Positions 5,209 through 56,185 are shown, counted from the stretch's first letter. The stretch: 64,000 nucleotides of DNA from Minisyncoccia bacterium (GCA_044229265.1 JBGATK010000005.1:14963-78962); one strand, 5' to 3'. Notes: a model not told the origin generated them from the letters alone. A program made the numbers and translations.

Positions 5209-6672
5209 TTAAATCATCGGCTCTGATTCTACTTCTTTTTGATTTTCTTTTTCTTCGTCATTCTTACTTCCATGTCCTCTGATTGCAGATTTTTCCTCTG
5301 CACTACGAATTATAGTTGCCTCTTCTTCTTCGATAAGTTTTCTGGCTGAATCTTTTGGAATCGCGTATTTTCTACGAGAGGCCGCGATGATTTCTTCTTT
5401 GTATGAAGGGTGCGTAGGTGGTAATACACGCAAGGTTTCAGCAGAAAATGGATCATAACTCTCGCCATCAATAGTCATTTTGACATAAAATTCTCCTACA
5501 GCTAGGTTGATCAAATCTTTAATATCAAAAATAGGGGCGAACTCTGGTTTTAATTTTACAGCATCTTCGCCACCTACACGAAATGCAATAACCGAACCCA
5601 CATTACCTAGAACTGCTTGATGAACTTTTGGAATTATTTGCCCTACGTATTGATGCGCCATAGTTAAATTGAGTCCATATTTACGAGCTTCCGAAAGAAT
5701 ATTTTCAAAAGTTTGAGTTACGATATTTTGGAACTCGTCCACATATAAATAAAAATCATAACGCTGATGCTCGGGTATAGCTGCGCGTTCCATACCTGAC
5801 TGTTTGATTTTTGTTAAAAACATCGAACCAAAAAAACTAGAGTTCTCTTCACCAATGCGTCCTTTGGAAAGATTAATCAAAATAATTTTCTTATTATTCA
5901 TCAGTTCTGAGATAGAAATTTTATTTTCTCTCTGGCCGAAAATATTTCGAAGGAGTGGATCAGACAGGAATTGGCCTAATTTATTTACAAGTGGAATAAT
6001 AGCATCGGTATCGAACTTCTCAGACCAATCAGCGAATTCGATAGCGAAGAATCTTTTAACCATATCATCTTGAATATATTCCACTACTTTTTGACGATAA
6101 TTTCTATCCGTAAGCATGCTGATCATACCGCGCATTGTGGCATAAGGATAGTCGAGTAGTGCGAGGCAAGTAAAACGAAATACGTGTTCGAGACGAGGAG
6201 TCCAGTTTGCACCGAATTGCTTTTGGAGGACTTCGATGAGTCCTTGAGTAAGTTGGAATTTAAACATCGGATCCACATTGGAAAGTGGATTAAATGATGC
6301 TGGATATTCTGTATCTGAAGGGTCTATAATACATACATCCTCGATACGCTCCCGTGGAATATAATCCAAGATTTGATCTATGAGTTCACCGTGTGGATCT
6401 ATAACACAAAGTCCATGGCCATAAGAAACATCTTGCCTGATAAAAAGTTCGAGTAATTTGGATTTGCCAACTCCGGATTTTCCTATGATATATAAATGCC
6501 TACGCCTGTCGACACGCTTGAGTCCAAAAATAAATTTCTTTTCTTCAAGAGCAGCTACGTAATTTGTACGCCCAATAAAAGAAGCTTCTTCCGGCCTAAC
6601 TTTACCAAATATCGGAAGCTCTGGTGGTGGTGGAGCGTATTTAATTATCTGCACTCTATTACCCTTTGCCAT
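5209..6672 (-). CDS. P-loop NTPase, VirD4/TraD/TraG coupling-protein-like (possibly HerA/DUF87-like) ATPase
   Basis: Walker A GKSGVGKSK, a VIDPHGE motif, Walker B FYLYVDEFQN and MAHQ. 487 aa. The family assignment is inferred by eye only. Confidence 0.45.
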   Translation of the reverse strand: MAKGNRVQIIKYAPPPPELPIFGKVRPEEASFIGRTNYVAALEEKKFIFGLKRVDRRRHLYIIGKSGVGKSKLLELFIRQDVSYGHGLCVIDPHGELIDQILDYIPRERIEDVCIIDPSDTEYPASFNPLSNVDPMFKFQLTQGLIEVLQKQFGANWTPRLEHVFRFTCLALLDYPYATMRGMISMLTDRNYRQKVVEYIQDDMVKRFFAIEFADWSEKFDTDAIIPLVNKLGQFLSDPLLRNIFGQRENKISISELMNNKKIILINLSKGRIGEENSSFFGSMFLTKIKQSGMERAAIPEHQRYDFYLYVDEFQNIVTQTFENILSEARKYGLNLTMAHQYVGQIIPKVHQAVLGNVGSVIAFRVGGEDAVKLKPEFAPIFDIKDLINLAVGEFYVKMTIDGESYDPFSAETLRVLPPTHPSYKEEIIAASRRKYAIPKDSARKLIEEEEATIIRSAEEKSAIRGHGSKNDEEKENQKEVESEPMI

Positions 6673-12420: not shown

Positions 12421-13746
12421 TTAATGAGGATAATTTATTTCTATTGAAATAGCTTTTAAATTACTTGGAAATTTTTGAAGCCAGAAAGGTTTTAAAGATA
12501 ATTCTGCAGATTTTATACTAGGGAAATTAGGTAATATTTCAGATAATATGTTTTTTTGTTTACCTAGAAGTTCGTTTTTTAATTTTTCTTCATCTACTTT
12601 AAAAACTACAACTATGTTTCCAGTAAGTCCAAAATCCAAATCTTTTATTTCATTAAGAGGAATATCCGAATTTTTAAACTCAAATTTTAAATCACGTATT
12701 TGTGGAATAAAAATAGGAGCATCGGTATATTGATCGATTTGTTTTTGAGCAATCTTTTTAGCTAATTCAGACTCTTTTATCAGAATACCGTAAAATGTCG
12801 CCTTCATAAATGCCTTGGCTTCCCCACCTGATACTATGGGTCCTATATTTTCTTCGTTTATCGTAAAACTAATAGCATCCTTATATAGGATAACATCAGC
12901 TGGTATTTGACTCTCAGCTTTTTCAAGTAGTTTTTTCTTTAACTTATTTTTTAATTCACCAAAAACTGCTAATTTCTCTAACTCTCCGAGCTCAATACGA
13001 GTGCCTACAAAACCACCGGTAATTTCACCTTTTGATTTTACAAAAAACTTTTCATATTTTGATGTTCCTTTAAAACCCAAAATTTGCAAATCAAGCGGGC
13101 CACTATTGTAATCGACTCCTGCTTTTTCTGCCCAAATACCTACTTCGACAGAACCTGGAGTTCCATCTTTTTTAAGTCCTGGAACTAAAACTTTTTTATC
13201 AGTTTTATATATTTTTCCATTTGTAGCTATTAATCTTGTATCAACATTTAAATTTTGAGGGGCGGAACTATAAGAATTATAAATTATGACTTTTCCATAA
13301 GCTTTTTCTTCAACATTTTTTTCTGTACCTCCTGAAACAGGGATACTTTCTTCGTCAGATAAAGAAACTGTGTCAAAAGATAAATTTTCAATTGTTGTGG
13401 AATTTTTAACTGCAGAAAAAGATTCATTGAGAGCGATGGCCTTTGCTTCTGGTTCTACTTTTACAATAGCTTTGCTAAAGAAAAAAGAAACTGAGAAGAA
13501 AAGTCCTACTATGGCTATTACTGCGACTATCCAAAAAGCATATTTATTACCACTTCCTTTTTGTCTTTCTATCGGTATTTCTACAGAAACATCTATTTTG
13601 GAAGGTTTCCTTTTTGGTATCTTATAATTAATTTCTTTTTCCGCGATAACAGGTAATTTACTCAAGGTATTTTTTGAGTTTGATTTTGTGTTTGCATCTT
13701 GTTTAACGCGAACCATGTCTTGAAATAAATTTTTATTTTTTGCCAT
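12421..13746 (-). CDS. Bitopic membrane protein with large extracytoplasmic domain, unknown function
   Basis: Basic N-terminus, a single TM helix (FWIVAVIAIVGLFFSVSFFF) and a ~350-aa extracellular domain. Confidence 0.4.
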   Translation of the reverse strand: MAKNKNLFQDMVRVKQDANTKSNSKNTLSKLPVIAEKEINYKIPKRKPSKIDVSVEIPIERQKGSGNKYAFWIVAVIAIVGLFFSVSFFFSKAIVKVEPEAKAIALNESFSAVKNSTTIENLSFDTVSLSDEESIPVSGGTEKNVEEKAYGKVIIYNSYSSAPQNLNVDTRLIATNGKIYKTDKKVLVPGLKKDGTPGSVEVGIWAEKAGVDYNSGPLDLQILGFKGTSKYEKFFVKSKGEITGGFVGTRIELGELEKLAVFGELKNKLKKKLLEKAESQIPADVILYKDAISFTINEENIGPIVSGGEAKAFMKATFYGILIKESELAKKIAQKQIDQYTDAPIFIPQIRDLKFEFKNSDIPLNEIKDLDFGLTGNIVVVFKVDEEKLKNELLGKQKNILSEILPNFPSIKSAELSLKPFWLQKFPSNLKAISIEINYPH

Positions 13747-42788: not shown

Positions 42789-43049
42789 ATGCCGTGTGTT
42801 TATATATTAAAAAATAAAAATGGAAACTTTTATATAGGTAGCACTATCAATTTAGAAGTTCGTATAAAGCAACACTTATCAGATTATTGTAAAACAACAA
42901 AAAGATTGGGTGCCTACGAGCTGGTATTTCATCAAAATTATGAAAATATAAAAGATGCTAGAAGAATTGAATATAAATTAAAACAATTGAAAAGAAAGGA
43001 TTATATTGCTAATATAATAAAAGATGGTTTTATTAAGATAAAACCATAG
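42789..43049 (+). CDS. Small GIY-YIG nuclease family protein
   Basis: MPCVYILKNKNGNFYIGSTINLEVRIKQH... contains GIY(x10)YIG with a conserved Arg and Glu. 86 aa. Paralogous to 55364..55642. Confidence 0.8.
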   Translation: MPCVYILKNKNGNFYIGSTINLEVRIKQHLSDYCKTTKRLGAYELVFHQNYENIKDARRIEYKLKQLKRKDYIANIIKDGFIKIKP

Positions 43050-43052
43050 TTT

Positions 43053-43125
43053 GGGCGGTTAGCTCAGTTGGTAGAGCGCAATATTGACGTTATTGATGTC
43101 AGAGGTTCGAATCCTCTACCGCCCA
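43053..43125 (+). tRNA. tRNA-Val (anticodon GAC)
   Basis: Acceptor GGGCGGT/ACCGCCC, D-arm GCTC-AGTTGGTA-GAGC, anticodon stem CAATA/TATTG, loop TTGACGT, T-arm AGAGG-TTCGAAT-CCTCT. Starts 4 nt after the GIY-YIG stop. Confidence 0.75.
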
Positions 43126-43197
43126 CTAGAATTGTAATTAGCGGTTTATTCAAAACAAATAGCTTATCGCACACAGAAAATATGCTACTATAAGGAT

Positions 43198-44025
43198 ATG
43201 CAAAATATTCACTTTTTGAATGGGAAATTTGTTAGTGAGGAGGAACTCCTTATCTCCCCTCGAGATTTGGGTTATACGCGTGGTTATGCTGTATTTGATT
43301 TCTTGCGTACTTACAATGGCAAACCATTTCACCTAAGTGAACATATAGAACGACTTTTAAATTCAGCAAAGCTTATTGATCTAAAAATTCCTTATACAAA
43401 AGAAGAAATAGAAAAAATAGTTTTAGAAACTTTAAATAAAAATAATAAAGACACAGAAAAAGCTATTAAAATCATAGCTTCAGGTGGCATTTCGAGCAAA
43501 ATGACTCAAATAGGTTCCCCTACTTTTATGATTTGGATTGATGACATGCCACCTGTGCCACAAGAGTACTATGAAAATGGCATAGGCATAATTACAGTCA
43601 AATACAAAAGATACATGCCAGAAGCTAAAACGAATAATTATATAGAAGGAGTAAAACAAACCCAAATAGCAGAAAGTGTGGGTGCACTCGAGCCGGTGTA
43701 TTTTGACGACGATGGTTTATATGAAAGCTCAAATAGTAATCTTTTTATAATTAAAAATGGCAAAATCTATACTCAAAAAGAAAATATGCTAATTGGTATC
43801 ACTAGGAAAGTTTTAATAGAAATTCTAAAACCTGAATTTATAGTCGAAGAAAAAAATCTAAAAATAGAAGATTTGCTCGGAGCTGATGAAGCATTTTTGA
43901 CAGGCAGTGCCAAAGAGATTTTGCCGATAGTCAAAATAGATGGCAAAATTTTTAGCCTAGGCGTGGTTGGTGAAAATACTAAAAAAATCTTAGAAATATG
44001 GAAGAAATATACAAATAAATATTAA
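43198..44025 (+). CDS. Class IV (branched-chain/D-amino acid) PLP-dependent aminotransferase
   Basis: Fold-type IV aminotransferase length and motifs (..RGYAVFDFLRTYNGKPF...EAFLTGSAKEILPI). Confidence 0.75.
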   Translation: MQNIHFLNGKFVSEEELLISPRDLGYTRGYAVFDFLRTYNGKPFHLSEHIERLLNSAKLIDLKIPYTKEEIEKIVLETLNKNNKDTEKAIKIIASGGISSKMTQIGSPTFMIWIDDMPPVPQEYYENGIGIITVKYKRYMPEAKTNNYIEGVKQTQIAESVGALEPVYFDDDGLYESSNSNLFIIKNGKIYTQKENMLIGITRKVLIEILKPEFIVEEKNLKIEDLLGADEAFLTGSAKEILPIVKIDGKIFSLGVVGENTKKILEIWKKYTNKY

Positions 44026-45167
44026 CTTTCATTAGACAAAGAGTCGTACTTCTTTTCCAATTTACTCTCCCAAAATGATGTTTTAGATCCATTTTTGCGG
44101 GCATCTTGTTCTATGAAAAGAGCATCTTTGTGATCTAACAAATTTATTACCTTAAAACCACCTATCTGAAAATCTGGATGATAAAATTTAATATTTATTT
44201 TCTTTATATTTTTCTCTTGAGTTAATTTTAAAACTTCTTGCATTAAAGAATCATATTCTTCTCTTGAAGATACATCGTTATCTGGTTCATCGGTAATAAG
44301 TAAAATTTCATTATCACTACTGTCTTGTTTTTCTAATTTTGATAATACATGAATCAAAGTACGCAAATGAGCCTCCTGGTTTCCGCCTTCTAAATTTACG
44401 ACTTCAATATTTTTATTGTATGTTTTGTTAATTTCCTGCACTGATTTAATTGCCTCCCCTGCTTCCCCTGCCATAGATTTCGAATGATCTACAATAACTC
44501 TAACTACATTCTTATAAAGGTCTGGAATTTTTTTTATATTATCGGGTTCTATTTCTAAAATCTTTTTTAAAGAAATATCGATACCTTGAGTTCTATCTTT
44601 TAATATTTCTTTCATTTCTTCACTCATATCTTGAATTTGTTCCTCTGTAAAACCCAAATCCAATATGGATTTCTCTAAAGATGAAGATTCTATTTTAATC
44701 TTCTCTATTTCCTCAGGCGAAAAACGTTCAGCTAAAACTTCATTTACCATTTCCAAACCTAATTCCTTTCTTGCTTCACGCAATTCATTATTTTTAGGTG
44801 TAGGCCTTTCTTTAGAACAAAGACCGGTTATGGTTATAATATTTTTTTCAAAATTTACATTTTTTAAGAATTCTCGAATAGCATTCTTGGCATTTTCTCT
44901 AGCATTTGAATCAAAAAATTCCGTAGTGCCTGTTTTGCAAAATTTAGCTATATTCAGACTATCTGAAAATTCTATTTTTTTATTGATATCATAAGTCTCA
45001 GAATCTGATATCTTTGTTTTTTCATTTTTTATTTCAATCTTATTAGGATCTAGTGATTTAGAATCAGAAGCTTTTGTTTCTGTGGCTACACCTAAAGAAC
45101 CAAGCATAGCTGTTCCAACAAGCACCTCTTTTGCATTTTTTCTAAAATTTTTAAAAATATTTTCCAT
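44022..45167 (-). CDS. Secreted von Willebrand factor A (vWA) domain protein
   Basis: Signal peptide, MIDAS-like DHSKSM (DxSxS) and LLITDEPDN motifs. Lies immediately downstream of the NHL giant protein on the same strand. Confidence 0.55.
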   Translation of the reverse strand: MENIFKNFRKNAKEVLVGTAMLGSLGVATETKASDSKSLDPNKIEIKNEKTKISDSETYDINKKIEFSDSLNIAKFCKTGTTEFFDSNARENAKNAIREFLKNVNFEKNIITITGLCSKERPTPKNNELREARKELGLEMVNEVLAERFSPEEIEKIKIESSSLEKSILDLGFTEEQIQDMSEEMKEILKDRTQGIDISLKKILEIEPDNIKKIPDLYKNVVRVIVDHSKSMAGEAGEAIKSVQEINKTYNKNIEVVNLEGGNQEAHLRTLIHVLSKLEKQDSSDNEILLITDEPDNDVSSREEYDSLMQEVLKLTQEKNIKKINIKFYHPDFQIGGFKVINLLDHKDALFIEQDARKNGSKTSFWESKLEKKYDSLSNES

Positions 45168-45181
45168 TAAATCAAAAATAA

Positions 45182-48100
45182 TTAAACCTTAAAATCTTTC
45201 TTTAGATAACCCTTAGTAATTTGAATTCCTTCTTCACTATGGACTTTGGTATAAGAACCGTCAGCATTTTTTTGCTCTATAGAAATATTGTAATTACCAT
45301 TTGGAGCCAAACAGAAATAATTGCCGAGGCGATCGATAATTTTATGAGTAATTTCTGTACCACTTTGCTTAGAGAATACACGTAAAATTCCATAAGCTAT
45401 AGGAGCGCCAATTTTAAACATAGCTTTGCCTTTAGCATTATTACCAAACTCTGTATGATTAAAAGCAAATAATATACCGTAAAGTGCAAATATGATTACA
45501 TTGTAATCTTTAATTTGACTACCGAGCAAAGTGATACCAGAAACAATAAAACCTACTAAAAAGAATATATCTACTATTTGCCCTACTGCTTTATCACTAC
45601 GCTTATACCAACGCAAACGATGTTGTTCTAATTTTGCATATTCATTCCAATCAAAACCTATTCTATCCATAGGAATATTTTTACTAATCACTTCTCCGAA
45701 TTCTTTTATTTCAATATAATTTCCATAATAAAGATCAGTATAAACTTCGTCTCTATCTCTACTATTTAATTTACTTGATGGGAAAACATAATGGGTTTTT
45801 TCAGCAATAATATGATAATGACCTGGCTCTACTAAAAATCCATACCTACCATCTATATCTGTAAAACAAGTTGCTAAAGTTTTCTTTTCTATGTCTACAA
45901 GTTTTAAATACACAGGATCGAGAGGTTGTTTGGTTTGTGAATCAAACACTACGCCCCATGGCTTGTGGCGTTTTTTAATACCAAAACCATAGAGGAACAT
46001 GGACCATGCTCGCATAGCGAGGTCTGTAATTCCAAGTGGATTTGTAAATACAAGTCGCACAAGATTCAGCGCAATAGTAGAAGCAGCTCCTAAAATAACT
46101 AAGGTTTTGGTAATTGCACTACCTAATATATCAGAAATTATTTCAAAAATTCCTTTTCCTGTATTTACACCAGAATTTTCATTTTGGTTTTCGCTACTAG
46201 GATTATTATTAGGATTTTGATTTGGATTATTGCCTGACGGAATATTTGGATTATTTGGTGGCGTATTTGGATTACTTGGATTATTACCTGATCCGCCATT
46301 TGGGGTAGTTGGATTATTATTTGGAGTTGTCGGAGTATTTGGAACAGATGGATTGCCACTTGGTGTATTTGGAGGATTTGTTGGTGGTGTAGGTATTGGA
46401 TTATCTGGAGTATTTGGTGGTATATTTGGATTTGAAGTATCACTATCTGTGGTTGAGACAGAAAAAATTACATCTGCTACACCATCATAACTAGTAGCCG
46501 AAAGTTCATCTATAACAGAAATAATAATATTATAACTTTGATTTCCATCAACCACTCCATCTGAAATACCAGTCAAAGTTATAGTTTGTGGTGTATTCCA
46601 ATTATTATTACTAAAAGTAATAGTTGCCGGCGAAACAGTGCCTTCATTTGTATTGCTAGAAGTAATAGATAAAACTACATCACTAGTGATATTTGATTTT
46701 AGCGATATGGTAAAAGTATCTGTGGTATTTTCAGAAACCATAGTTCCACCCTCTGTATGAACTACATTTATTCCTGGTTGCTGTCCACCGCCTCCACCCC
46801 CACCACCTCCTCCACCAACAGTTTCAGATACATCAAAAACCATAATACGATGATGTCCTGCATCAGCTTCATACAAATAATCATGAACACTATCATATCT
46901 AAGACCATTTGGATTACCTATACCAGATTGAGAAAGAGTAGGACTACCTGTTGTAAAATTTCCTTTACCTAAAACTTTTACCGCATTTTCTCCGTCAATA
47001 ATAGTAGATACATCAAAAGTTAAAACACGGTGATTAGCAACATCGGAAACAAAAAGTGTGTTATCCGAGCTACGCAGAGCAAGACCAAAAGGAAGATTAA
47101 ATTTCGATTGAGTAAGGCCGCTACTTCCAGTAGTAAAATTACTTTGTCCTAAGACATTTACAGCATTTTCGCCGTCAGTTATTGTAGCTACATCAAAGAC
47201 CATGACTCTATGATTATTACCATCAGCTACATAAAGTTTGTGATTAGTATTATCATACAAAACACCAAAAGTTGTATTGAATTTTGCTACTGTATTTCCT
47301 GTAGTTCTAGTAGTAAAATTGTTTTGTCCAATAACATTCACCGCGTTTTCGCCATCAGTGATAGTAGCTACATCAAAAGTTAAAACACGATGATTGTAAG
47401 TATCAGAAACGAAAAGTCTATTATTGGTAGAATCAAAAGATAAACCGTAAGGATAATACATCCTGGATTGAGTTACACCATTTAATGCATTTGTGAAATT
47501 GGGTTGCCCTAAAACATTTACTGCATTTTCACCGTTTACAATAGTAGTAGTATCAAAAACCATTACACGAGAATTTGTGGTATCAGAAACAAAAAGCCTA
47601 TTATTTACATCATCAAAAGCAAGCATAGTCGGATGATTTAATCCGGACTGTGTTGTAGTAGTTTCCCTTGAATTAAAATTAGGCTGACCTAAAACATAGT
47701 CTGGGATACGGTCCATCAGCAGATCATCAGAAGTTAAATTGTAAACTAACACTCTATGATTCCCATTATCTACCACGAATAAACGGTGATTGGTGTGGTC
47801 CATTGCAATATCTACAGGCTGATCGAGTCCTATTGCATTCGGCGTATCTGTAGATGAAAAATAAAACGGAACAGGATCAGTGAAATTGGTGCCATCGTAT
47901 TTACCAATCAAATCAACAGCGTTTTCACCGTTTGTAATAGTAGTTGTATCAAATATCATTATGCGATTATTATTATAATCACCTACGAACAAATAATCAT
48001 TAACTTCATCAAAAGCTAAGCTTTGAGGTGAAATTAATTTAGATTGACTAGTGTTGCCAGTTGAAGTTGTAAAATCTGTTTGACCTAGAACTTTTACTGC

Positions 48101-50356
48101 ATTTTCGCCATCAGTAATTGCGGTAGTATCAAAAACCATAATTCTATTATTATCTGAATCTGATACAAATAAACGATTATTTCCATCGAGAAGTAAAGCA
48201 TTTGGATTACTAAATCCATTAATAGTAGTTGCTACTGTATTTGAATAAAAATTAGATTGACCTAATACATTGTCTGGAACAAGGTCTTCCAATTCATTTG
48301 TGATTGATAAATCATAAACCAAAACACGATGATTCCCTGTATCTAAGACAAAAAGTCTATGATTTATAGTATCTATTACTTGGCCAGTGGGGTTAGATAA
48401 TCCCAATCTATTTGGAGCATCATCTATTCTCTGTGTTGTATAAATAGGATATGGACTAGAAACAGAAGTTTGATCGTATTGACCTATCGCATCACCAGCG
48501 TCCATACCATTTACCATTTCATCTTGTGCGGCAAATTGTAGCATACGATGCAAACTAGAATCTGTTACAAAAACACCTGCATTCTCAGGTAAGCTTACAG
48601 CTATGCCTTCAGGAGTATATATACCATTTTGATCTACATCTAAATTCTGGCTAGTAAAATTACTCTGGCCTAGAACATGCACTGCATTTTCACCATCTGT
48701 AATTGTATTTACATTATATTGAGTTATTCGCGAATTATTTTTTTCAGAAACAAATAAAGTTCCATCATTGTCAGCACCGTTCGCACCATCTCCAAAATAA
48801 GCTACATCGTGAGGATGATTCATGGTGGACTGCGTAATATCTCCGCTATTACTAATAAAGTCTGGTTGACCAAGTACATTTACTGCATCTTCACCGTCAG
48901 TAATAGTATTTACATCAAAGACTAGAACACGATTATTGTCTGCATCTGCCACAAAGAGTCTACCTGTTGCATAATCTATCGAAACACCTTTTGGAGAAGC
49001 CATACCATTTACCGTTGTCGTATAATTACTACTTACAAAATCACTTTGGCCTAAAACTTTTGTTGCATCTTCACCATTTGTTATACTAGCAACATCAAAG
49101 ACTAGAACACGATTATTGTAAACATCAGCTACATATAAAAAATTTTCTGAAAATAATATTCCCTCTGGGTAATTAATACCTGACTGCGAAAGATTTGAAT
49201 TATTACTAACAAAATCCACTTGTCCGAGAACTGCCATAGCATCTTCACCGTCTGTTATACCATCACTTAAATCATAAGCTAAAATACGATTATTTCCTGT
49301 GTCGGAAACAAAAAGTCGAGAATTTAAATAATCAAAAGTAAGACGAGTTGGGTTATTTAAAGAAGATATTGAAGTTCCTGAATTATTAGTATAATAATTT
49401 GACTGCCCTAAAACATAGTCCGGTATTCTGTCTGTGCTAGAAAAACTATTATGTACATCCAAATTATAAACCAAAATACGATTATTTGAGCTATCTGCTA
49501 AGAATAAAAAACCTCCACCTATAGCCACACCTTTAGGTGTATTAAATCCCAATCTATTTGGTGAATTATTCGCTCTATTTGAAGTATAAAGAGATGTAAG
49601 ATTACTGTAATCTGTTTCATCATATTGACCAAGCAACTTTGTTGCATCTTCACCATTTGTTATACTAGCAACATCAAAAACTAAAACTCTATGATTTGCA
49701 GAATCAGAAACATAAAGTAAATTATTAGTGTCGTCTAAGGATAATCCTTTTGGACTACTTAAACCCCACGCAGTAGCATTGTTTCCGCTGCTAACAAAAT
49801 CACTTTGACCTAAAACATTTATCGCTGTTTCGCCATTGGTAATTTCAGCAACATTAAAAATCATTATACGATTATTAGAAGAATCAGAAACATAAAGTAA
49901 ATTATTTACTGAATCAAAAACCAAATTACTAGGATTGTTTAAACCTGATTCCGTTGTATTAATAGTATTAGTGTAAAAATTAGATTGACCAAGTACATTA
50001 TCTGGAACATGATCTACAAGTAAATCTCCTGCTGTTAAATCAAAAACTAAGATACGATTATTTGCTGAATCAGAAACAAAGAGTCTATGATTCACAGAAT
50101 CAACGACTTGACCATATGAACCAGTAAAACTAAATAAATTTGGTAAATTGTTTACACGGCTAGACGTATAAAGTGGATTTGGATTTGGATAACCAGTTTC
50201 ATCAAATTGACCTAGTCCATTTGTAGCATTAGGACCATCGGAAAAAGAATTTATATTAATAACAAAATAAATAGACAAACCTACACCAAGAAGAATAGAT
50301 AAAGTAGCGAGAAAAAAATGTTTAGTTTTCATATTATTCATAGGATATATGTACAT
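45182..50356 (-). CDS. Giant surface protein with ~18 NHL (beta-propeller) repeats, a poly-Gly tract, an Ig/Calx-like segment, a Pro/Thr/Asn-rich linker and a C-terminal membrane anchor
   Basis: N-terminal signal/TM segment. Recurring ~45-aa units (N[NH]R[IV][LM]VFD...ITDGENAVNVLGQ.NFT). Other segments are GGGGGGGGGGG, PNTPDNPIPTPPTNPPNTP... and a DGRYGF carboxypeptidase-regulatory-like segment. Several hydrophobic helices lie near the C-terminus. Confidence 0.8.
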   Translation of the reverse strand: MYIYPMNNMKTKHFFLATLSILLGVGLSIYFVININSFSDGPNATNGLGQFDETGYPNPNPLYTSSRVNNLPNLFSFTGSYGQVVDSVNHRLFVSDSANNRILVFDLTAGDLLVDHVPDNVLGQSNFYTNTINTTESGLNNPSNLVFDSVNNLLYVSDSSNNRIMIFNVAEITNGETAINVLGQSDFVSSGNNATAWGLSSPKGLSLDDTNNLLYVSDSANHRVLVFDVASITNGEDATKLLGQYDETDYSNLTSLYTSNRANNSPNRLGFNTPKGVAIGGGFLFLADSSNNRILVYNLDVHNSFSSTDRIPDYVLGQSNYYTNNSGTSISSLNNPTRLTFDYLNSRLFVSDTGNNRILAYDLSDGITDGEDAMAVLGQVDFVSNNSNLSQSGINYPEGILFSENFLYVADVYNNRVLVFDVASITNGEDATKVLGQSDFVSSNYTTTVNGMASPKGVSIDYATGRLFVADADNNRVLVFDVNTITDGEDAVNVLGQPDFISNSGDITQSTMNHPHDVAYFGDGANGADNDGTLFVSEKNNSRITQYNVNTITDGENAVHVLGQSNFTSQNLDVDQNGIYTPEGIAVSLPENAGVFVTDSSLHRMLQFAAQDEMVNGMDAGDAIGQYDQTSVSSPYPIYTTQRIDDAPNRLGLSNPTGQVIDTINHRLFVLDTGNHRVLVYDLSITNELEDLVPDNVLGQSNFYSNTVATTINGFSNPNALLLDGNNRLFVSDSDNNRIMVFDTTAITDGENAVKVLGQTDFTTSTGNTSQSKLISPQSLAFDEVNDYLFVGDYNNNRIMIFDTTTITNGENAVDLIGKYDGTNFTDPVPFYFSSTDTPNAIGLDQPVDIAMDHTNHRLFVVDNGNHRVLVYNLTSDDLLMDRIPDYVLGQPNFNSRETTTTQSGLNHPTMLAFDDVNNRLFVSDTTNSRVMVFDTTTIVNGENAVNVLGQPNFTNALNGVTQSRMYYPYGLSFDSTNNRLFVSDTYNHRVLTFDVATITDGENAVNVIGQNNFTTRTTGNTVAKFNTTFGVLYDNTNHKLYVADGNNHRVMVFDVATITDGENAVNVLGQSNFTTGSSGLTQSKFNLPFGLALRSSDNTLFVSDVANHRVLTFDVSTIIDGENAVKVLGKGNFTTGSPTLSQSGIGNPNGLRYDSVHDYLYEADAGHHRIMVFDVSETVGGGGGGGGGGGQQPGINVVHTEGGTMVSENTTDTFTISLKSNITSDVVLSITSSNTNEGTVSPATITFSNNNWNTPQTITLTGISDGVVDGNQSYNIIISVIDELSATSYDGVADVIFSVSTTDSDTSNPNIPPNTPDNPIPTPPTNPPNTPSGNPSVPNTPTTPNNNPTTPNGGSGNNPSNPNTPPNNPNIPSGNNPNQNPNNNPSSENQNENSGVNTGKGIFEIISDILGSAITKTLVILGAASTIALNLVRLVFTNPLGITDLAMRAWSMFLYGFGIKKRHKPWGVVFDSQTKQPLDPVYLKLVDIEKKTLATCFTDIDGRYGFLVEPGHYHIIAEKTHYVFPSSKLNSRDRDEVYTDLYYGNYIEIKEFGEVISKNIPMDRIGFDWNEYAKLEQHRLRWYKRSDKAVGQIVDIFFLVGFIVSGITLLGSQIKDYNVIIFALYGILFAFNHTEFGNNAKGKAMFKIGAPIAYGILRVFSKQSGTEITHKIIDRLGNYFCLAPNGNYNISIEQKNADGSYTKVHSEEGIQITKGYLKKDFKV

Positions 50357-50424
50357 ATAATAATAGCATTACGAGCATTTAAATAAAAGTGGAAAAAAGT
50401 TAGAAAATAAGGTAAGTTAAGATT

Positions 50425-51558
50425 ATGATAGTTTTAAGCATAGAAACCTCGTGCGATGATACGGGCATAAGCATATTAGAAATAAAAGACTTGAGAACCA
50501 AAGCTGTATTTTCAGTATTGGCGAATTTCGTATCTTCCCAAACTGCTATACACTCTCCTTATGGCGGAGTTTTTCCTGCGCTTGCCAAACGTGAACATAT
50601 AAAAAATTTGCCAATATTATTAGAAAAAGCTCTAAAAAAAGCAAAAATTAAAATAGAGGATTTAGATTTAATTTGTGTGACAAGTGGCCCAGGACTCGAA
50701 CCTGCTCTTTGGACTGGAATAGTCTTTGCTAAAGAACTAACCAAAAAATACAAAATTCCCATAACTGCTGTAAACCATATGGAAGGCCACATACTATCTG
50801 TATTTGCAAAAAGTAAAAATTTTGAAATTCCAAAAGAGGCAAGCAAGGTAGGATTTCCTATGATTTCGCTTTTAGTTTCGGGCGGGCATACTGAACTTGT
50901 ATTAGTAGAAGCTTGGGGTAAATACAAGATTTTAGGCAAAACTCTCGACGACGCTGTTGGTGAAGCTTTCGATAAGGTAGCGCGCATGCTAGGCCTGCCA
51001 TACCCTGGAGGACCAGAAATTTCAAAATTAGCAGAAGAAAATAGGAAGATTGTGAATTTAAGAACCCTTGCGCAGGCTGACGAGCCGAGCAGAGCAATTT
51101 TTCAGCAGAAAAATATGCGTGGTGAGAAAATTCATAATCTTCCTATTTTCACCCTCCCTCGCCCAATGATGTATAGCAAAGATTTTAATTTCTCATATTC
51201 AGGACTCAAAACTGCAGTACTATATTTAATAAAAAAAATTGATGTTTTAGATGAAAATACAAAAAAAGCTATAGCATTAGAATTTGAAAATGCAGCCATA
51301 GAACCACTATTACATAAAACTAAAAAAGCTATAGAAAAATACAATGCAAAAACATTAATTGTCGGCGGAGGTGTAGCTCAAAATAAACATTTACAAAGAA
51401 TCTTAAAAAAAGAAATAAAAAAAACTAAAATCTTCTTCCCTGTTCGTGCTTTAGCTTCTGACAACGCTCTGATGATAGGTATTGCTGGCACACTATCATA
51501 TCTCAAGAAAAAAAAATCGTCAAAAAATGTAAAAGCCGAGGGTAATCTATCATTGTAA
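50425..51558 (+). CDS. tsaD: tRNA N6-adenosine threonylcarbamoyltransferase TsaD
   Basis: MIVLSIETSCDDTGISILE N-terminus and Kae1/TsaD HxEGH metal motif (NHMEGH). Confidence 0.85.
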   Translation: MIVLSIETSCDDTGISILEIKDLRTKAVFSVLANFVSSQTAIHSPYGGVFPALAKREHIKNLPILLEKALKKAKIKIEDLDLICVTSGPGLEPALWTGIVFAKELTKKYKIPITAVNHMEGHILSVFAKSKNFEIPKEASKVGFPMISLLVSGGHTELVLVEAWGKYKILGKTLDDAVGEAFDKVARMLGLPYPGGPEISKLAEENRKIVNLRTLAQADEPSRAIFQQKNMRGEKIHNLPIFTLPRPMMYSKDFNFSYSGLKTAVLYLIKKIDVLDENTKKAIALEFENAAIEPLLHKTKKAIEKYNAKTLIVGGGVAQNKHLQRILKKEIKKTKIFFPVRALASDNALMIGIAGTLSYLKKKKSSKNVKAEGNLSL

Positions 51559-51609: not shown

Positions 51610-53766
51610 ATGGAAATTAATGAAAAATTACTAAAACCTTATAATGCAAAAGACACCGAGGGCAGAATTTACAAGGAATGGGAAGATTCTGGTTTTTTCA
51701 ATCCAGATGTATGTATAGAAAAAGGCGTCATACCTAGCACCGCTGAAGCATTTTCTATTGTACTTCCCCCACCAAATGCAACTGGAGTCCTCCACCTCGG
51801 CCACGCACTCGAGACTTCAATGCAAGACGCTATGATACGCTACAATCGTATGCAAGGTAAAAAAACCTTATGGCTTCCAGGAACTGATCACGCAGCCATA
51901 GCTACTGATGCCAAAGTTACCAAAATTTTAGAAAAAGAAGGTTTAAAAAAGAAAGATATTGGCAGAGAAAAATTTTTGGAGAGAGTAGAGGTATTTGTAG
52001 AAGATAGTAGGAAAACTATTACAAGCCAACTTCGAAACATGGGTGCTAGCCTAGATTGGTCACGTGAAGCTTTTACCTTAGATGAAAAAAGGCATATTGC
52101 CGTAAATACTGCTTTCAAAAAAATGTACGATGATGGTTTAATTTATCGCGGGCACCGTATTGTAAACTGGGATCCCAAAGGCCAAACTGTAATTTCTGAC
52201 GACGAATTAGTTTACGAAGAAAAAAAGGGTAAATTTTATACTTTTAAGTATGGTCCATTCAATATAGGCACTGCCCGCCCTGAAACAAAATTTGGCGATA
52301 AATATGTAGTAATGCATCCAGATGATATTCGTTATAAAGAATATATGCATATGCAGAAAATAAATTTAGAATGGATAAATGGCCCGATTGAGGCGACTAT
52401 TATTAAAGATGAAATGATAGATATGGAATTCGGCACAGGAGTCATGACCATTACTCCATGGCACAGCCACGAAGACTTTGCTCTAGCAGAAAAATATAAA
52501 TTAGAAAAAGAGCAAATTATCGACAAATACGGCAAGCTACTCCCTATCGCTGGTGAATTCGCAGGTATGAAAATAAGTGATGCGAGAGAAAAAATTGTAG
52601 AAAAATTAAAAGAAAAAGGTTTACTTGTGTCAGTAGACGAAAACTATACAAATCGTGTAGCTACTGCCGAGCGCACTGGTGGCACAATAGAGCCTCAAAT
52701 CATGGAGCAATGGTTTATAGATGTAAATAAAAAAATAAAAGACAGAGACAATAAATCTCTCAAAGAGCTCATGCTATCTCCTGTGCAAAATAGCGAAATA
52801 AAAATCCTACCAGATAGATTTGAAAAAGTGTATTACAACTGGGTAGAAAATTTACGCGACTGGTGTATTTCAAGGCAGATTTGGTATGGACACAGAATTC
52901 CTGTTTGGTATCGAGGGGAAGAAATTTTTGTAGGAGAAAATCCAGGCGAAAATTGGACTCAAGACCCTGATAGCCTAGACACATGGTTCTCTTCTGGACT
53001 TTGGACCTTTTCTACGCTAGGCTGGCCAGAAAATACAAATGACTTAAAAAAATTCCACCCGACAAGTGTTGTGAATCCTGGATATGAAATTCTATTCTTT
53101 TGGGTTGCTCGTATGATACTTATGTCTAAATATTTGCTAGACGAAATTCCATTTAAAACAGTTTATCTACACGGCATGCTTCGTGATGCAAAGGGTCAAA
53201 AGTTCAGCAAGTCACTGGATAATGGCATAGACCCAATAAAAGTTATTGAAGAATACGGAGCTGATGCACTGCGTATGTCGCTCATCGTTGGCATTGCTCC
53301 TGGTATGGATAGTAAATTCGATATTCAAAAAGTAAAAGCTTACAGTAAATTTGCAAATAAGATCTGGAATGCAACTCGTTTTGTCTTAGAACAAACACAA
53401 GACCTAGATTTAAATAATTTAGCAAATACAGATTTAGACGAAGAAGACAAAAAGTCTCAGGAAGAATTAAATAAACTTTTGCAAGAAATAACATTAGAAA
53501 TGGAAGAATATAAATTCTACATAGTTGCTGAAAAGCTTTACCATTATTTTTGGCATACTTTTGCAGACATAATAATTGAACGCTCAAAAAAGAAAATTTT
53601 AGAAAATAACAACACAAAAAGTGCTAAAACTATACTTGTAATGCAACTAGAAATACTAATTAAAGCTCTTCACCCATTTATGCCTTTTGTTACAGAAGAG
53701 CTTTGGGCTATAATGAATAAGAAGGATATGCTAATGGTATCTCCTTGGCCAACAAATAATGTTTAG
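51610..53766 (+). CDS. valS: Valyl-tRNA synthetase (short form)
   Basis: PPPNATGVLHLGHA (HIGH), ...WLPGTDHAAIAT, and KFSKS (KMSKS). 718 aa, lacking the C-terminal coiled-coil. Confidence 0.85.
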   Translation: MEINEKLLKPYNAKDTEGRIYKEWEDSGFFNPDVCIEKGVIPSTAEAFSIVLPPPNATGVLHLGHALETSMQDAMIRYNRMQGKKTLWLPGTDHAAIATDAKVTKILEKEGLKKKDIGREKFLERVEVFVEDSRKTITSQLRNMGASLDWSREAFTLDEKRHIAVNTAFKKMYDDGLIYRGHRIVNWDPKGQTVISDDELVYEEKKGKFYTFKYGPFNIGTARPETKFGDKYVVMHPDDIRYKEYMHMQKINLEWINGPIEATIIKDEMIDMEFGTGVMTITPWHSHEDFALAEKYKLEKEQIIDKYGKLLPIAGEFAGMKISDAREKIVEKLKEKGLLVSVDENYTNRVATAERTGGTIEPQIMEQWFIDVNKKIKDRDNKSLKELMLSPVQNSEIKILPDRFEKVYYNWVENLRDWCISRQIWYGHRIPVWYRGEEIFVGENPGENWTQDPDSLDTWFSSGLWTFSTLGWPENTNDLKKFHPTSVVNPGYEILFFWVARMILMSKYLLDEIPFKTVYLHGMLRDAKGQKFSKSLDNGIDPIKVIEEYGADALRMSLIVGIAPGMDSKFDIQKVKAYSKFANKIWNATRFVLEQTQDLDLNNLANTDLDEEDKKSQEELNKLLQEITLEMEEYKFYIVAEKLYHYFWHTFADIIIERSKKKILENNNTKSAKTILVMQLEILIKALHPFMPFVTEELWAIMNKKDMLMVSPWPTNNV

Positions 53767-54442
53767 TGACCCAAAAATTTTAGGATTAGCTTTTATAGGA
53801 GGAACTGTTCCTGCTCTGATTTGGCTGTGGTTTTGGCTTAAAGAAGACAAGCATAACAAGGAACCTCGTGGACTTCTAACTATGATATTTATCATGGGTA
53901 TGCTCGGAGTGATATTAGTTTTACCTATACAAAAAATAATTCAAAATATCGGATTCTCTTCTGACACAGAAACTATTCTCTGGGCACTAGCAGAAGAATT
54001 AATAAAATTTTTAGCTATAATTGTTGTCTTAGTTAAGACTAACTTTATAGATGAACCTGTAGATTGGCCAGTTTATCTAATAACCGGAGCGCTAGGCTTT
54101 GCTGCACTTGAAAATAGTCTTTTTATTTTAAAACCACTTTCACTAGGTGATGCAACTGTAAGTATAGTAACTAGCCAGCTTCGCTTCCTCGGTTCGACAT
54201 TGCTTCACGCTGTATCTAGTGGAATCTTGGGAGTTTTTCTTGGACTTGCCTTCCATTTAAAACCATTTTTCAAAAAAATTTATTTTCTTTGTGGAATTAT
54301 TTTTGCAACCGCCTTGCATAGTATCTTTAATTTTTTTATAATTAAAGGAGATGGTAATAATTTTCTAGAAACTTTAGCTTTCCTTTGGGTTATCACCATT
54401 ATACTCATGCTACTTTTCGAAAAATTACGAAGAATGAGTTAG
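53759..54442 (+). CDS. PrsW-family intramembrane metalloprotease-like protein
   Basis: Polytopic protein with EELIK (EExxK), LLHAVSSG and HSIFN (HxxxN) motifs. Confidence 0.5.
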   Translation: MFSDPKILGLAFIGGTVPALIWLWFWLKEDKHNKEPRGLLTMIFIMGMLGVILVLPIQKIIQNIGFSSDTETILWALAEELIKFLAIIVVLVKTNFIDEPVDWPVYLITGALGFAALENSLFILKPLSLGDATVSIVTSQLRFLGSTLLHAVSSGILGVFLGLAFHLKPFFKKIYFLCGIIFATALHSIFNFFIIKGDGNNFLETLAFLWVITIILMLLFEKLRRMS

Positions 54443-55298: not shown

Positions 55299-55373
55299 TG
55301 GTGCCGGGGGTGAGAATCGCACTCACGACCTATCCCTCTTCAGGGGAGAGCTCTACTACTGAGCTACCCCGGC
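55299..55373 (-). tRNA. tRNA-Phe-like (anticodon GAA), non-canonical features
   Basis: Minus-strand sequence GCCGGGGTAGCTCAGTAGTAGAGCT CTCCC CTGAAGA GGGAT AGGTC GTGAG TGCGATT CTCAC CCCCGGC A CCA. CCA is encoded. There is a C-U mismatch at 27-43, G at position 37 and G at T-loop position 55. Confidence 0.6.
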
Positions 55374-55642
55374 ATTTTTATTTTAACAAAACCATCTTTT
55401 ACTATCTTCTCTATGTAATCATGTCTTTTAAATTTTTTCAACCTTTTCTCAATATATCTTACCTCACTCAATGTTTCAAATTTTTGTGAAAAAACTAATT
55501 TTAATTTTCCCATCTTACTGGTTGAAGGTGTATAACCTCCATTATGATGCCTAATTCTTTCATCTATATCAGTAGTGCTACCTATATAGTAATTCCCCTT
55601 TTCACTTTGTAATATATATACGTATGGCATATATTTTAACAC
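55364..55642 (-). CDS. Small GIY-YIG nuclease family protein (paralog of 42789..43049)
   Basis: MPYVYILQSEKGNYYIGSTTDIDERIRHH..., ending in KDGFVKIKMPG. The last three codons and stop overlap nt 1-10 of the tRNA. An alternative start at 55630 gives MPYVYIL, as in the paralog. Confidence 0.8.
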   Translation of the reverse strand: MLKYMPYVYILQSEKGNYYIGSTTDIDERIRHHNGGYTPSTSKMGKLKLVFSQKFETLSEVRYIEKRLKKFKRHDYIEKIVKDGFVKIKMPG

Positions 55643-55644
55643 TG

Positions 55645-55698
55645 AGCCCCGACGCTTTCGGTCGGGATCCCGACTTTACGTCGGGGCTACCCCGGCAT
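55645..55698. repeat. CCCCGAC-family nested palindrome (copy C) plus a 13-bp duplicate of the tRNA 5' end
   Basis: AGCCCCGAC-GCTTTCG-GTCGGGA|TCCCGAC-TTTAC-GTCGGGGCT, then GCTACCCCGGCAT (55686-55698), which is identical to 55363-55375 at the tRNA 5' end. Confidence 0.6.
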
Positions 55699-56013: not shown

Positions 56014-56053
56014 ATGTTAAATTATATAAGGTTTTTTATTGTTTCGCCCTCAT

Positions 56054-56095
56054 AGCCCCGACGTAAAGTCGGGGAGCCGACAAGTATCGTCGGCT
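56054..56095. repeat. CCCCGAC-family double hairpin (copy B), solo copy upstream of tRNA-Arg
   Basis: AGCCCCGAC-GTAAA-GTCGGGG followed by AGCCGAC-AAGTATC-GTCGGCT. Same architecture as copy A. It ends 15 bp before the tRNA 5' end. Confidence 0.6.
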
Positions 56096-56110: not shown

Positions 56111-56182
56111 GTCCTTGTAGTTAAATGGATATAACTTCCCCGTCCTAAGGGGACATTGCAGGTCCGATTCCTGCCAAGGACA
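56111..56182 (+). tRNA. tRNA-Arg (anticodon CCT)
   Basis: Acceptor GTCCTTG/CAAGGAC, D-arm GTTA-AATGGATA-TAAC, anticodon stem TCCCC/GGGGA, loop GTCCTAA, T-arm GCAGG-TCCGATT-CCTGC (C at position 55). No CCA encoded. Confidence 0.7.
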
Positions 56183-56185
56183 CAA

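Follow-up and report, generated by a model that had tools for sequence, protein, structure and literature searches.

How members of the Patescibacteria, or Candidate Phyla Radiation (CPR), recognise partner cells and stay attached to them is largely unknown outside a few cultured Saccharibacteria, and for the Paceibacterota hosts and adhesins are both unknown. Precedents among CPR surface proteins are PilX2, a pilin with a beta-propeller that Saccharibacteria need in order to bind their host (PMC11623550), and large extracellular proteins of Peribacteria that vary between strains (PMC4736985). The window analysed here, a stretch of 64,000 nucleotides (nt) from a Minisyncoccia bacterium (GCA_044229265.1 JBGATK010000005.1:14963-78962), contains at 45182..50356 a gene for a protein of 1724 amino acids (aa), which consists of a signal peptide, a large head of NHL repeats, a poly-glycine (poly-Gly) tract, an immunoglobulin (Ig)-like domain, a low-complexity linker and a C-terminal membrane-anchor module. 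Comparison of the locus between genomes indicates that the head allele has been replaced by recombination, and the module appears to be shared by a large family of patescibacterial proteins with unrelated heads. Positions are counted from the first nucleotide of the window, and all parts of the protein lie on the minus strand.

The open reading frame (ORF) starts with ATG and is the longest of the window, as the initial annotation had it. The matching NCBI entry (P0071) is the same protein from Met6 on (1719 aa, 100% identity). The window has a G+C content of ~35% and a core-chromosome gene content, i.e. FtsA/FtsZ, a Mur ligase, a PBP, MurJ, LepA, several aminoacyl-tRNA synthetases, TsaD and five tRNAs. 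Those relatives of its LepA that bear a name (77-81% identity) are labelled 'Candidatus Paceibacterota', 'Candidatus Pacebacteria' or 'Patescibacteria group'; judged from sequence, the gene is thus one of a Paceibacterota bacterium, a member of the Patescibacteria with their ultrasmall cells. In four genomes the gene is located between tsaD and a class-IV aminotransferase gene, among housekeeping proteins 57-100% identical to those of the window. The orthologues of the three other assemblies comprise 1724 aa (L083, P0072), 1726 aa (L084, P0075) and 1464 aa (P0077, on the two contigs L107/L108 from different sequencing runs). All compared genomes are metagenome assemblies, and the comparison is one at assembly level. 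Since syntenic orthologues exist in independent assemblies, the ORF is not a mis-assembled collapse of several smaller genes, a possibility raised at the outset. The initial annotation also counted the gene among accessory genome content, which does not hold for the locus, because it is syntenic in four genomes and the head alone is variable.

The window and the conspecific L083 share nine neighbouring proteins at 96-100% identity, and their flanking DNA is mostly 98-100% identical per 90-nt segment. Neither allele breaks the frame, and each encodes exactly 1724 aa. The linker is identical (100%) and the module has 99.4% aa identity, versus only 51% for residues 40-1170. The hypervariable segment (46850..50233) begins at the mature N-terminus and ends with the last strand ahead of the poly-Gly tract, and DNA identity within it, from ~50233 to ~46850, is 33-73% per 90-nt segment. 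Its breakpoints are sharp. The stretch encoding the signal peptide retains ~99% DNA identity, with divergence beginning right after SFSDG, i.e. at S39/D40, and the other breakpoint is located just ahead of the Gly tract. Seven of the 11 codons of this tract differ synonymously from L083, and the Ig-like domain behind it forms an intermediate zone with 90% aa identity and 81% identical codons. Where the head residue is conserved, the two alleles use the same codon in 52.4% of cases, compared to 52.7% expected under randomised synonymous sites with the codon usage of this head; in linker and module, 98.7-98.9% of codons are identical. Synonymous sites are therefore saturated in the head and near-identical outside, as expected of anciently diverged heads set in a recent common background. 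Variation is unevenly distributed, with loops at 47% and strands at 64% identity between the alleles. Positive selection in situ as the cause of the head divergence is ruled out by the randomised synonymous sites.

A second, smaller dip in identity to L083 (80-93% per 90-nt segment) is found at 50441-50620, in the 5' end of tsaD, and in the intergenic positions 50365-50378. A near-identical stretch with promoter and signal peptide separates this dip from the hypervariable head, which suggests more than one recombination tract at the locus.

The two remaining orthologues differ from the window to different degrees in head and module. In L084, TsaD and a synthetase are 57-58%, the module 49% and the head 57% identical to those of the window, with the highest values in blade 1 (85%) and blade 13 (77%). 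The best match of a window blade occupies the same position for 13 of the 18 blades against L084 and for 8 of 18 against the L083 allele, and the window head appears closer to the head of the distant L084 than to that of its conspecific, mainly through a few blades. P0077 possesses 12-13 blades, ~70% identical to window blades 4-9, and a second Ig domain, retains the Gly tract ahead of a homologous Ig domain, and occurs among housekeeping proteins 72-83% identical to those of the window, with a module at 81-86%; this allele was assembled identically from two sequencing runs. The histories of head and anchor are thus discordant across relatives, and the heads are mosaic. The same decoupling is present in further pairs of the module family described below (P0283/P0285, P0134/P0157, L016/P0205 and L006/L007), in which modules are 84-100% and heads 40-79% identical; in L016/P0205 the divergence again starts just past a shared signal peptide. 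A metagenome scan for close relatives of stalk and module turned up no additional allele of the locus; its matches were all distant members of the family, at 32-49% identity.

The conserved C-terminal module comprises residues 1397-1724 (45185..46168), as delimited by its homologues, a profile search and an AlphaFold2 (AF2) model with a predicted local distance difference test score (pLDDT) of 83.6. Its elements are, in order, an amphipathic lead-in, a first transmembrane (TM) helix named TM-B, an Asn-Pro turn, a short helix with conserved Arg and Trp, a KKR cluster, beta-sandwich 1, an amphipathic helix with the motif FDWNEYAK, a hairpin of two further TM helices (TM-C/TM-D) and beta-sandwich 2. 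In the AF2 model these elements appear accordingly as two helices of 38 (with TM-B) and 18 residues, followed by sandwich 1, a short helix of amphipathic character, the TM hairpin and sandwich 2. TM-B, a putative stop-transfer helix at residues 1415-1437 (46046..46114), was identified by hydrophobicity and is located inside the predicted helix 15-52 of the module. The short conserved helix at residues 1441-1460 (45977..46036; AF2 helix 54-71) is preceded by Asn-Pro and followed by KKRHKPWG, and conservation of this region across the family reaches 62% for N, 77% for P, 86% for E/D, 91% for R, 84% for W and 94% for G. Sandwich 1, at residues 1466-1575 (45632..45961), is of the CarboxypepD_reg/CnaB/transthyretin-like type according to PF13620 and Foldseek, and its CarboxypepD_reg-like match includes DGRYGF (residues 1502-1507). 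The PF13620 match amounts to 29.4 bits (E=1e-6) in this protein, which is below the Pfam gathering cut-off of 32.3, and to 40-45 bits in other family members. TM-C and TM-D, at residues 1591-1634 (45455..45586), were found by hydrophobicity and correspond to AF2 helices 200-225 and 231-248 with a 6-residue loop. Sandwich 2, at residues 1641-1724 (45185..45436), is transthyretin-like, with AF2 strands in 257-327 at pLDDT >90 and profile matches to the transthyretin-like domains of carboxypeptidase M and NOMO. By Foldseek and profile searches the two sandwiches resemble CnaB/CnaB2, SdrD B and the transthyretin-like domains found in NOMO and in carboxypeptidases D and M. The hydrophobic C-terminal region with a DGRYGF sandwich, as first annotated, does contain this sandwich and is, taken as a whole, a widespread and conserved patescibacterial module with three TM helices and two sandwiches. 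Nothing in the PDB matched the whole module in Foldseek and profile searches, and no Pfam or NCBIfam model covers it.

The last 338 residues yielded 70 protein matches (E=9e-109 to 7e-19, 24-53% identity, 39-100% query coverage), which are, where named, Patescibacteria, Paceibacterota, Gribaldobacteria or Parcubacteria, with one labelled 'bacterium', and for which 'carboxypeptidase-like regulatory domain-containing protein' is the fullest annotation given. They vary at the N-terminus: some have no head, and many carry three 'GWINF'-type repeats between a signal peptide and a P/T-rich linker. The family is defined by a collinear match along the last ~330 residues, which takes in the TM hairpin and sandwich 2 in addition to an F-x-N-P turn, the R-L-W helix, KKR-x-x-P-W-G, TD-x-DGRYGF and NIPMD...FDWNE, and the protein of the window belongs to it by its matches. 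When one genome of each species was scanned by pattern and tblastn, at least 592 module loci were confirmed, and the best 80 of these all belong to metagenome-assembled genomes of Patescibacteria, many of which have 2-3 loci. Against 1.84 billion cluster representatives, the module profile returned 2,572 clusters at E<=1e-30, in which the module is almost always the protein end. ORFs at the confirmed loci are 332 to 2916 aa long. A sample of 236 distinct heads comprises 109 of the GWINF type, 25 NHL and 102 others, the last including Fn3, Big_12 Ig-like, BNR/sortilin-like and other propellers; the heads are mutually unrelated. On these sequence comparisons the module is a lineage-wide platform carrying many unrelated extracellular heads, and as far as the best 80 loci and the named matches extend it appears restricted to Patescibacteria.

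The commonest family head, an N-terminal region of ~250 residues (e.g. P0014, P0015, P0040; L002, L011, L013), combines three 'G(Y/W)AWxxxxGWI(N/K)F' repeats with a signal peptide and a 'GTID' motif, and Pfam yields nothing for it. It seems to represent an extracellular repeat domain that is as yet undescribed and conserved across Paceibacterota.

About 30 of the 80 loci share the gene order ComEC (Competence + Lactamase_B) - Peptidase_M50 - family gene - rpsL - rpsG - fusA. The family gene in this canonical arrangement often starts 2-33 nt past the M50 gene on the same strand (e.g. L020:4117-8942, L049:6455-9011; L013-L077). Heads at the M50-rpsL locus are mostly GWINF, with NHL heads in L020 and L024 and other heads in L016, L017 and L071. 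The NHL gene of the window is a paralogue at another conserved locus, and there is no M50 gene within the 64 kb. At one M50-rpsL locus (L081:2190-4825) a tandem pair is present, consisting of a complete 600-aa GWINF-headed gene and a 274-aa second copy (P0054) that starts 8 nt past the stop of the first. At another (L082:1677-3028) the gene is found in two ORFs, a 163-aa head/TM and a 287-aa module with a 4-nt overlap, which reflects either a frameshift or a real split.

Membrane topology was assessed from charge statistics across ~150 family members. Lys and Arg are clustered at three sites, directly behind the short helix (3.7 in 8 residues), ahead of TM-C (2.5 in 10) and behind TM-D (3.1 in 12), and the turn between TM-B and the short helix, as well as the TM-C/TM-D loop, are almost uncharged. 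The short helix is unlikely to be an ordinary membrane span because of its conserved E/D, R and W and the preceding N-P, and is better regarded as interfacial. With the positive-inside rule, the Lys/Arg pattern places the head outside, TM-B from outside to inside, sandwich 1 inside, then the TM hairpin, and sandwich 2 again inside, so that both sandwiches are probably cytoplasmic. The tandem copy P0054, which possesses no signal peptide, no TM helix ahead of sandwich 1 and no head, fits a cytoplasmic sandwich 1.

The protein begins with a predicted Sec-type signal peptide at residues 1-39 (50240..50356; hydrophobicity scan and translation), with the n-region MNNMKTK, a 20-residue h-region and a putative cleavage site SFS|DG. 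Its hydrophobic segment at residues 13-39 is the N-terminal signal/TM segment seen earlier. The NHL head, residues 40-1180 (46817..50239), matches PF01436 with 220.4 bits (cut-off 20; E=2e-67) in 12 stretches. A pattern search found the blade-core motif 18 times at a spacing of 59-73 residues, in agreement with the ~18 repeats first reported, and the DNA of the head has a periodicity of 180 nt with repeats 60-83% identical. Blades 1, 4, 10 and 13 carry a longer 'GQYDxT...YT...PN' insert. Residues 815-1320 were modelled with AF2 from a 31-sequence alignment (mean pLDDT 89). The model has six successive four-stranded blades, 13-18 (residues 815-1180, 46817..47914), at pLDDT >93, followed by the Gly tract and a nine-strand sandwich. 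Foldseek against the PDB matched residues 815-1320 to the lumenal NHL domain of SOQ1 (7djj, target-normalised TM-score, TMt, 0.74), to NHLRC2 (6g7w, 0.71) and to Mei-P26 (7nyq, 0.74), furthermore to peptidyl-alpha-hydroxyglycine alpha-amidating lyase (PAL, 3fvz) and to 6-phosphogluconolactonases, and also recovered the propeller+PKD unit of the archaeal surface (S)-layer protein 1l0q (E=7e-18). In this model blades 13-18 close into one six-bladed propeller with an Ig-like domain after it. The multiple six-bladed propellers of the initial annotation thus have model and Foldseek support for this third unit, and the 18 blades would form three propellers if the first and second are extrapolated from it.

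Several other models match the head in part. Pfam Arylesterase (108 bits) and SGL (64.6 bits) are both above their cut-offs and cover model positions 41-84 of 86 and 128-213 of 246, i.e. pieces of one or two blades; the similarity is therefore one at the level of the repeat. TEN_NHL (PF25021) matches weakly with 49.6 bits, and the ScyF NHL/PEP-CTERM model (NF035926) with 119.1 bits versus an equivalog cut-off of 350, the PEP-CTERM motif being absent. Some database relatives of the head carry RHS repeats and others are labelled 'beta-propeller fold lactonase family protein'; in the protein itself, Pfam and NCBIfam scans detected no RHS/YD repeats and no toxin domain, and likewise no SLH, CWB2 or other S-layer anchoring domain.

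At the junction of variable head and conserved stalk, 11 consecutive GGN codons (residues 1181-1191, 46784..46816) encode the 11-residue Gly tract already noted before, a likely hinge that is disordered in the AF2 model (pLDDT <50). The stalk domain behind it, residues 1192-1306 (46439..46783), is modelled as an Ig-like beta-sandwich of 9 strands at pLDDT ~85-95 and has no Pfam (E<=1), NCBIfam or PDB sequence match. Of the Ig/Calx-like segment proposed for this region the Ig-like half is therefore retained, whereas Calx-beta (PF03160) lacks any HMM support and the AF2 model gives only a generic 9-strand sandwich. The linker described as ~85 aa and PT/N-rich measures 90 aa, residues 1307-1396 (46169..46438), with N29, P26, T11 and S9, and may span the cell wall as an extended spacer; most family members have an equivalent P/T-rich linker ahead of the module. 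The whole protein contains only two cysteines and no LPXTG-like motif ([LIV]Px[TSA]G). Sortase (LPXTG) anchoring was rejected, as this motif is absent and the protein ends in a folded sandwich in place of a sorting signal.

These features are best accommodated, with somewhat better than even confidence, by a surface-displayed binding protein that is anchored by the module and whose head is exchanged by recombination under diversifying pressure. The Sec signal peptide would export the N-terminal part, in which three six-bladed NHL propellers would form a large binding head, held off the cell by the poly-Gly hinge, the Ig-like sandwich and the 90-residue Pro/Asn/Thr spacer. The module would fix the protein in the cytoplasmic membrane, its first TM helix stopping transfer, and the two transthyretin-like sandwiches with their Lys/Arg clusters would most likely reside in the cytoplasm with the TM hairpin between them. 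The head would act as a replaceable cassette, with homologous recombination through the signal-peptide/upstream region on one side and the Gly-hinge/stalk flank on the other installing anciently diverged alleles in otherwise near-identical genomes. Diversifying or frequency-dependent selection might be imposed by recognition of host or partner cells, or by avoidance of phage or host defences. As the head is wholly different in a near-identical strain, the protein is a good candidate for partner or host recognition; the cell-surface adhesin or partner-interaction role first suggested is consistent with the anatomy and stays an interpretation of it.

Some observations weigh against this interpretation. 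Transthyretin/CnaB-like sandwiches are usually extracytoplasmic, which counts against their placement in the cytoplasm, and the headless P0054 may be a decaying copy. Head identities of ~50-57% are little above the baseline of 35-45% between any two such NHL arrays, hence the closeness to the distant L084 derives mainly from a few blades and the resolution of a head phylogeny is limited. Nothing ties the NHL head to a host. Finally, the assembler may have joined a head to the wrong flanks, or collapsed paralogues through their identical ends, in which case the protein would be real and its allele replacement an artefact of assembly or binning, with heads of co-occurring populations or paralogues stitched onto the same flanks. 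All sequences are contigs of metagenome-assembled genomes, the breakpoints are at conserved sequence, where de Bruijn graphs can cross populations, the family is multi-copy, and look-ups of the exact protein of the window and of P0071 found neither on a contig of the contig index. However, both alleles are in frame at exactly the same length, the transition is graded, from the head through an Ig domain with 81% identical codons to 99%, instead of having a single switch point, P0077 is identical from two sequencing runs, and independent family pairs have an equal decoupling of head and module. A crossover in the graph would still require populations with identical flanks and different heads, which is the same biological conclusion, and an artefact is on balance improbable. 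Diversification of the head in place by targeted hypermutation, e.g. by a diversity-generating retroelement (DGR), is effectively refuted. DGRs are common in CPR genomes, but no reverse transcriptase was found among the window ORFs scanned, in which a single YxDD-type motif belongs to an FAD-linked oxidase, and the window has no template repeat outside the gene; moreover, the divergence extends over 3.4 kb with all codon positions saturated and with indels, whereas variable regions of DGRs comprise ~0.1-0.2 kb and are adenine-specific.

Other explanations accept the replacement and assign the protein a different role. It might be a transmembrane receptor, in which the head senses a ligand and the module signals inward, maybe via proteolysis by M50 site-2 (and PrsW-type site-1) proteases that release or expose cytoplasmic sandwiches. 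The canonical family gene follows Peptidase_M50 by 2-33 nt on the same strand in ~30 of 80 loci, although this order up to rpsL may be core synteny of reduced genomes and the window itself has no M50 gene. Behind TM-B there is a conserved helix-breaking Asn-Pro (N 62%, P 77%), and SREBP requires an NP motif for its site-2 cleavage; a PrsW-family gene three genes off in the window and at orthologous loci may be near by chance. The module is conserved far beyond the need of a plain anchor and its sandwiches are probably cytoplasmic, but most of the invariant residues of sandwich 1 are determinants of the CarboxypepD_reg fold, and no output domain (DNA-binding, anti-sigma or kinase) is present, which leaves a receptor unlikely. 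A structural envelope or S-layer-type protein, with propellers tiling the surface, linker and anchor holding the lattice, and variability arising from phage or predator pressure on an abundant coat, would fit the recovery of the 1l0q propeller+PKD unit, the layout, which leads as in haloarchaeal S-layer glycoproteins from a signal peptide over several domains and a Thr/Pro-rich spacer to a C-terminal TM region, and the recombinational cassette switching that occurs in S-layer genes such as slpA of C. difficile; CPR cells reportedly show surface layers by cryo-electron microscopy (Luef et al. 2015). The absence of SLH, CWB2 and other S-layer anchoring domains from Pfam and NCBIfam matches argues against it, several paralogues with unrelated heads per genome are a misfit for a single lattice protein, and 18 blades on a long flexible stalk suggest an outward-reaching binder more than a lattice, so that a coat protein is distinctly unlikely. 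That the head is a surface-displayed enzyme, namely a lactonase, arylesterase or PAL-like six-bladed propeller, is very improbable: the Arylesterase and SGL matches exceed their cut-offs, PAL and 6-phosphogluconolactonases are among the structural matches and some relatives are labelled as lactonases, but the Pfam matches span only fragments of one or two blades, the loop-concentrated divergence of ~50% between conspecific alleles misfits a conserved active site, and three tandem propellers on a stalk are an adhesin-like design.

If the surface-display reading with exchangeable heads is correct, the locus is a concrete candidate for the recognition proteins sought in Paceibacterota, i.e. a gene at a fixed position whose head is swapped wholesale while stalk and anchor remain ~99-100% identical, and its anchor ties the 1724-aa protein to a family of thousands. 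In population metagenomes, head alleles could serve to mark host or phage specificity; heads made as recombinant protein offer a handle for ligand fishing, and the module one for tests of topology and proteolysis. Were the head variability an assembly artefact, or the protein a coat component, it would be an ordinary large surface protein. A far-reaching and rather doubtful extension is that the module constitutes a major undescribed receptor platform specific to Patescibacteria, combining exchangeable heads, a three-TM unit and two cytoplasmic transthyretin-like domains, with a founding member co-transcribed with the M50 protease next to the str operon, and that the family, with this 18-blade paralogue, serves partner recognition of episymbionts and sets their host range by head swapping. 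In the literature searched on Patescibacteria/CPR surface, NHL and beta-propeller proteins no description of the module or locus was found, and the anchor module, its Patescibacteria-wide distribution, the canonical M50-rpsL locus and the sharply bounded head replacement appear to be new.

The surroundings of the gene contain several further features. A 381-aa gene (44022..45167, minus strand) begins 14 nt past the stop codon of the NHL gene on the same strand and encodes a Lys/Glu-rich protein with a signal-peptide-like N-terminus, no significant Pfam or NCBIfam match and a DxSxS-like motif, DHSKS, which is possibly VWA/MIDAS. The gene is 99.5% identical in L083 and absent at the P0077 locus (L107/L108); it is a possible operon partner of the NHL gene, though not conserved with the locus. 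No homologue of it or of the other window neighbours was found near the 80 family loci, and it is therefore not a partner of the module family. The PrsW-family intramembrane protease gene is located at 53759-54442 (plus strand), three genes from the NHL gene, a position kept in L083 and L108. Two small diverged paralogous ORFs for GIY-YIG nucleases (Pfam E=8.5e-16 and 6e-14) are present at 42789-43049 (plus strand, 86 aa) and 55364-55642 (minus strand, 92 aa), each abutting a tRNA gene, i.e. tRNA-Val (43053-43126) and tRNA-Phe (55299-55373), respectively. The pair forms a 70-72% inverted repeat bracketing a 12-kb block with the NHL gene. A stretch of ~310 nt (55376-55685) that holds the second GIY-YIG ORF is missing from the near-identical strain L083, and this ORF therefore behaves like a mobile insertion. 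A GC-rich inverted repeat of 41 nt with 80% complementarity and 'CCGACG...TCGGG' units (55649-55689 / 56053-56093) is found just upstream of tRNA-Arg (56111-56183), without an Rfam match at the gathering threshold. Elsewhere in the window, a 487-aa ORF (5209-6672, minus strand) has weak matches to TrwB/VirD4-type coupling proteins and HerA-like ATPases (E ~2e-7), and a 441-aa ORF (12421-13746, minus strand) adjoining an FtsA-like gene has no Pfam match at E<=1e-5.

With NHL six-bladed propellers (PF01436; 6g7w, 7djj, 7nyq, 3fvz) the head shares the repeat signature, four-stranded blades and six-blade closure. Unlike these, the protein possesses 18 tandem blades, appears exported and stalked, is hypervariable between strains and has no Trx, TRIM or catalytic partner domain. 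The weak TEN_NHL match and the RHS repeats of some head relatives recall teneurin/RHS-type NHL proteins, from which it differs by the lack of RHS/YD repeats and of a toxin domain. The succession of a propeller and an Ig-like sandwich is also that of the Methanosarcina S-layer protein 1l0q, whose propeller is, however, YVTN-type instead of NHL. Haloarchaeal S-layer glycoproteins have the same layout from signal peptide through domains and a low-complexity spacer to a C-terminal membrane anchor, but theirs is a single TM helix or PGF-CTERM, not a three-TM, two-sandwich module.

The fold of both C-terminal sandwiches is that of Gram-positive MSCRAMM/pilin stalks (SdrD B, CnaB, SpaA) and of CarboxypepD_reg (PF13620). 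In MSCRAMMs, in contrast, the sandwiches are extracellular stalk repeats, whereas here they are interleaved with TM helices and probably cytoplasmic, and no LPXTG is present. Among CPR surface proteins, PilX2 and the Peribacteria proteins are, as far as the searched passages of PMC11623550 and PMC4736985 describe them, comparable in being partly propeller-bearing, implicated in attachment and strain-variable, and different in being cysteine-rich or pilin-borne; these passages contain no mention of the C-terminal module, the M50-rpsL locus or the decoupling of head and anchor. The exchange of deeply diverged exposed parts between otherwise near-identical genomes, next to a conserved anchor and conserved flanks, has its parallel in the slpA/S-layer cassette switching of C. 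difficile, which concerns another protein family in another phylum; the exchanged unit is here a part of the gene, from signal peptide to poly-Gly. By the searches and comparisons above, the protein is not a Calx-beta, LPXTG or RHS protein, nor a DGR target or member of a known S-layer family. By analogy, it would function as stalked adhesins of Gram-positive bacteria or anchored surface glycoproteins of archaea do, and evolve like the switchable cassettes of S-layer and adhesin genes.

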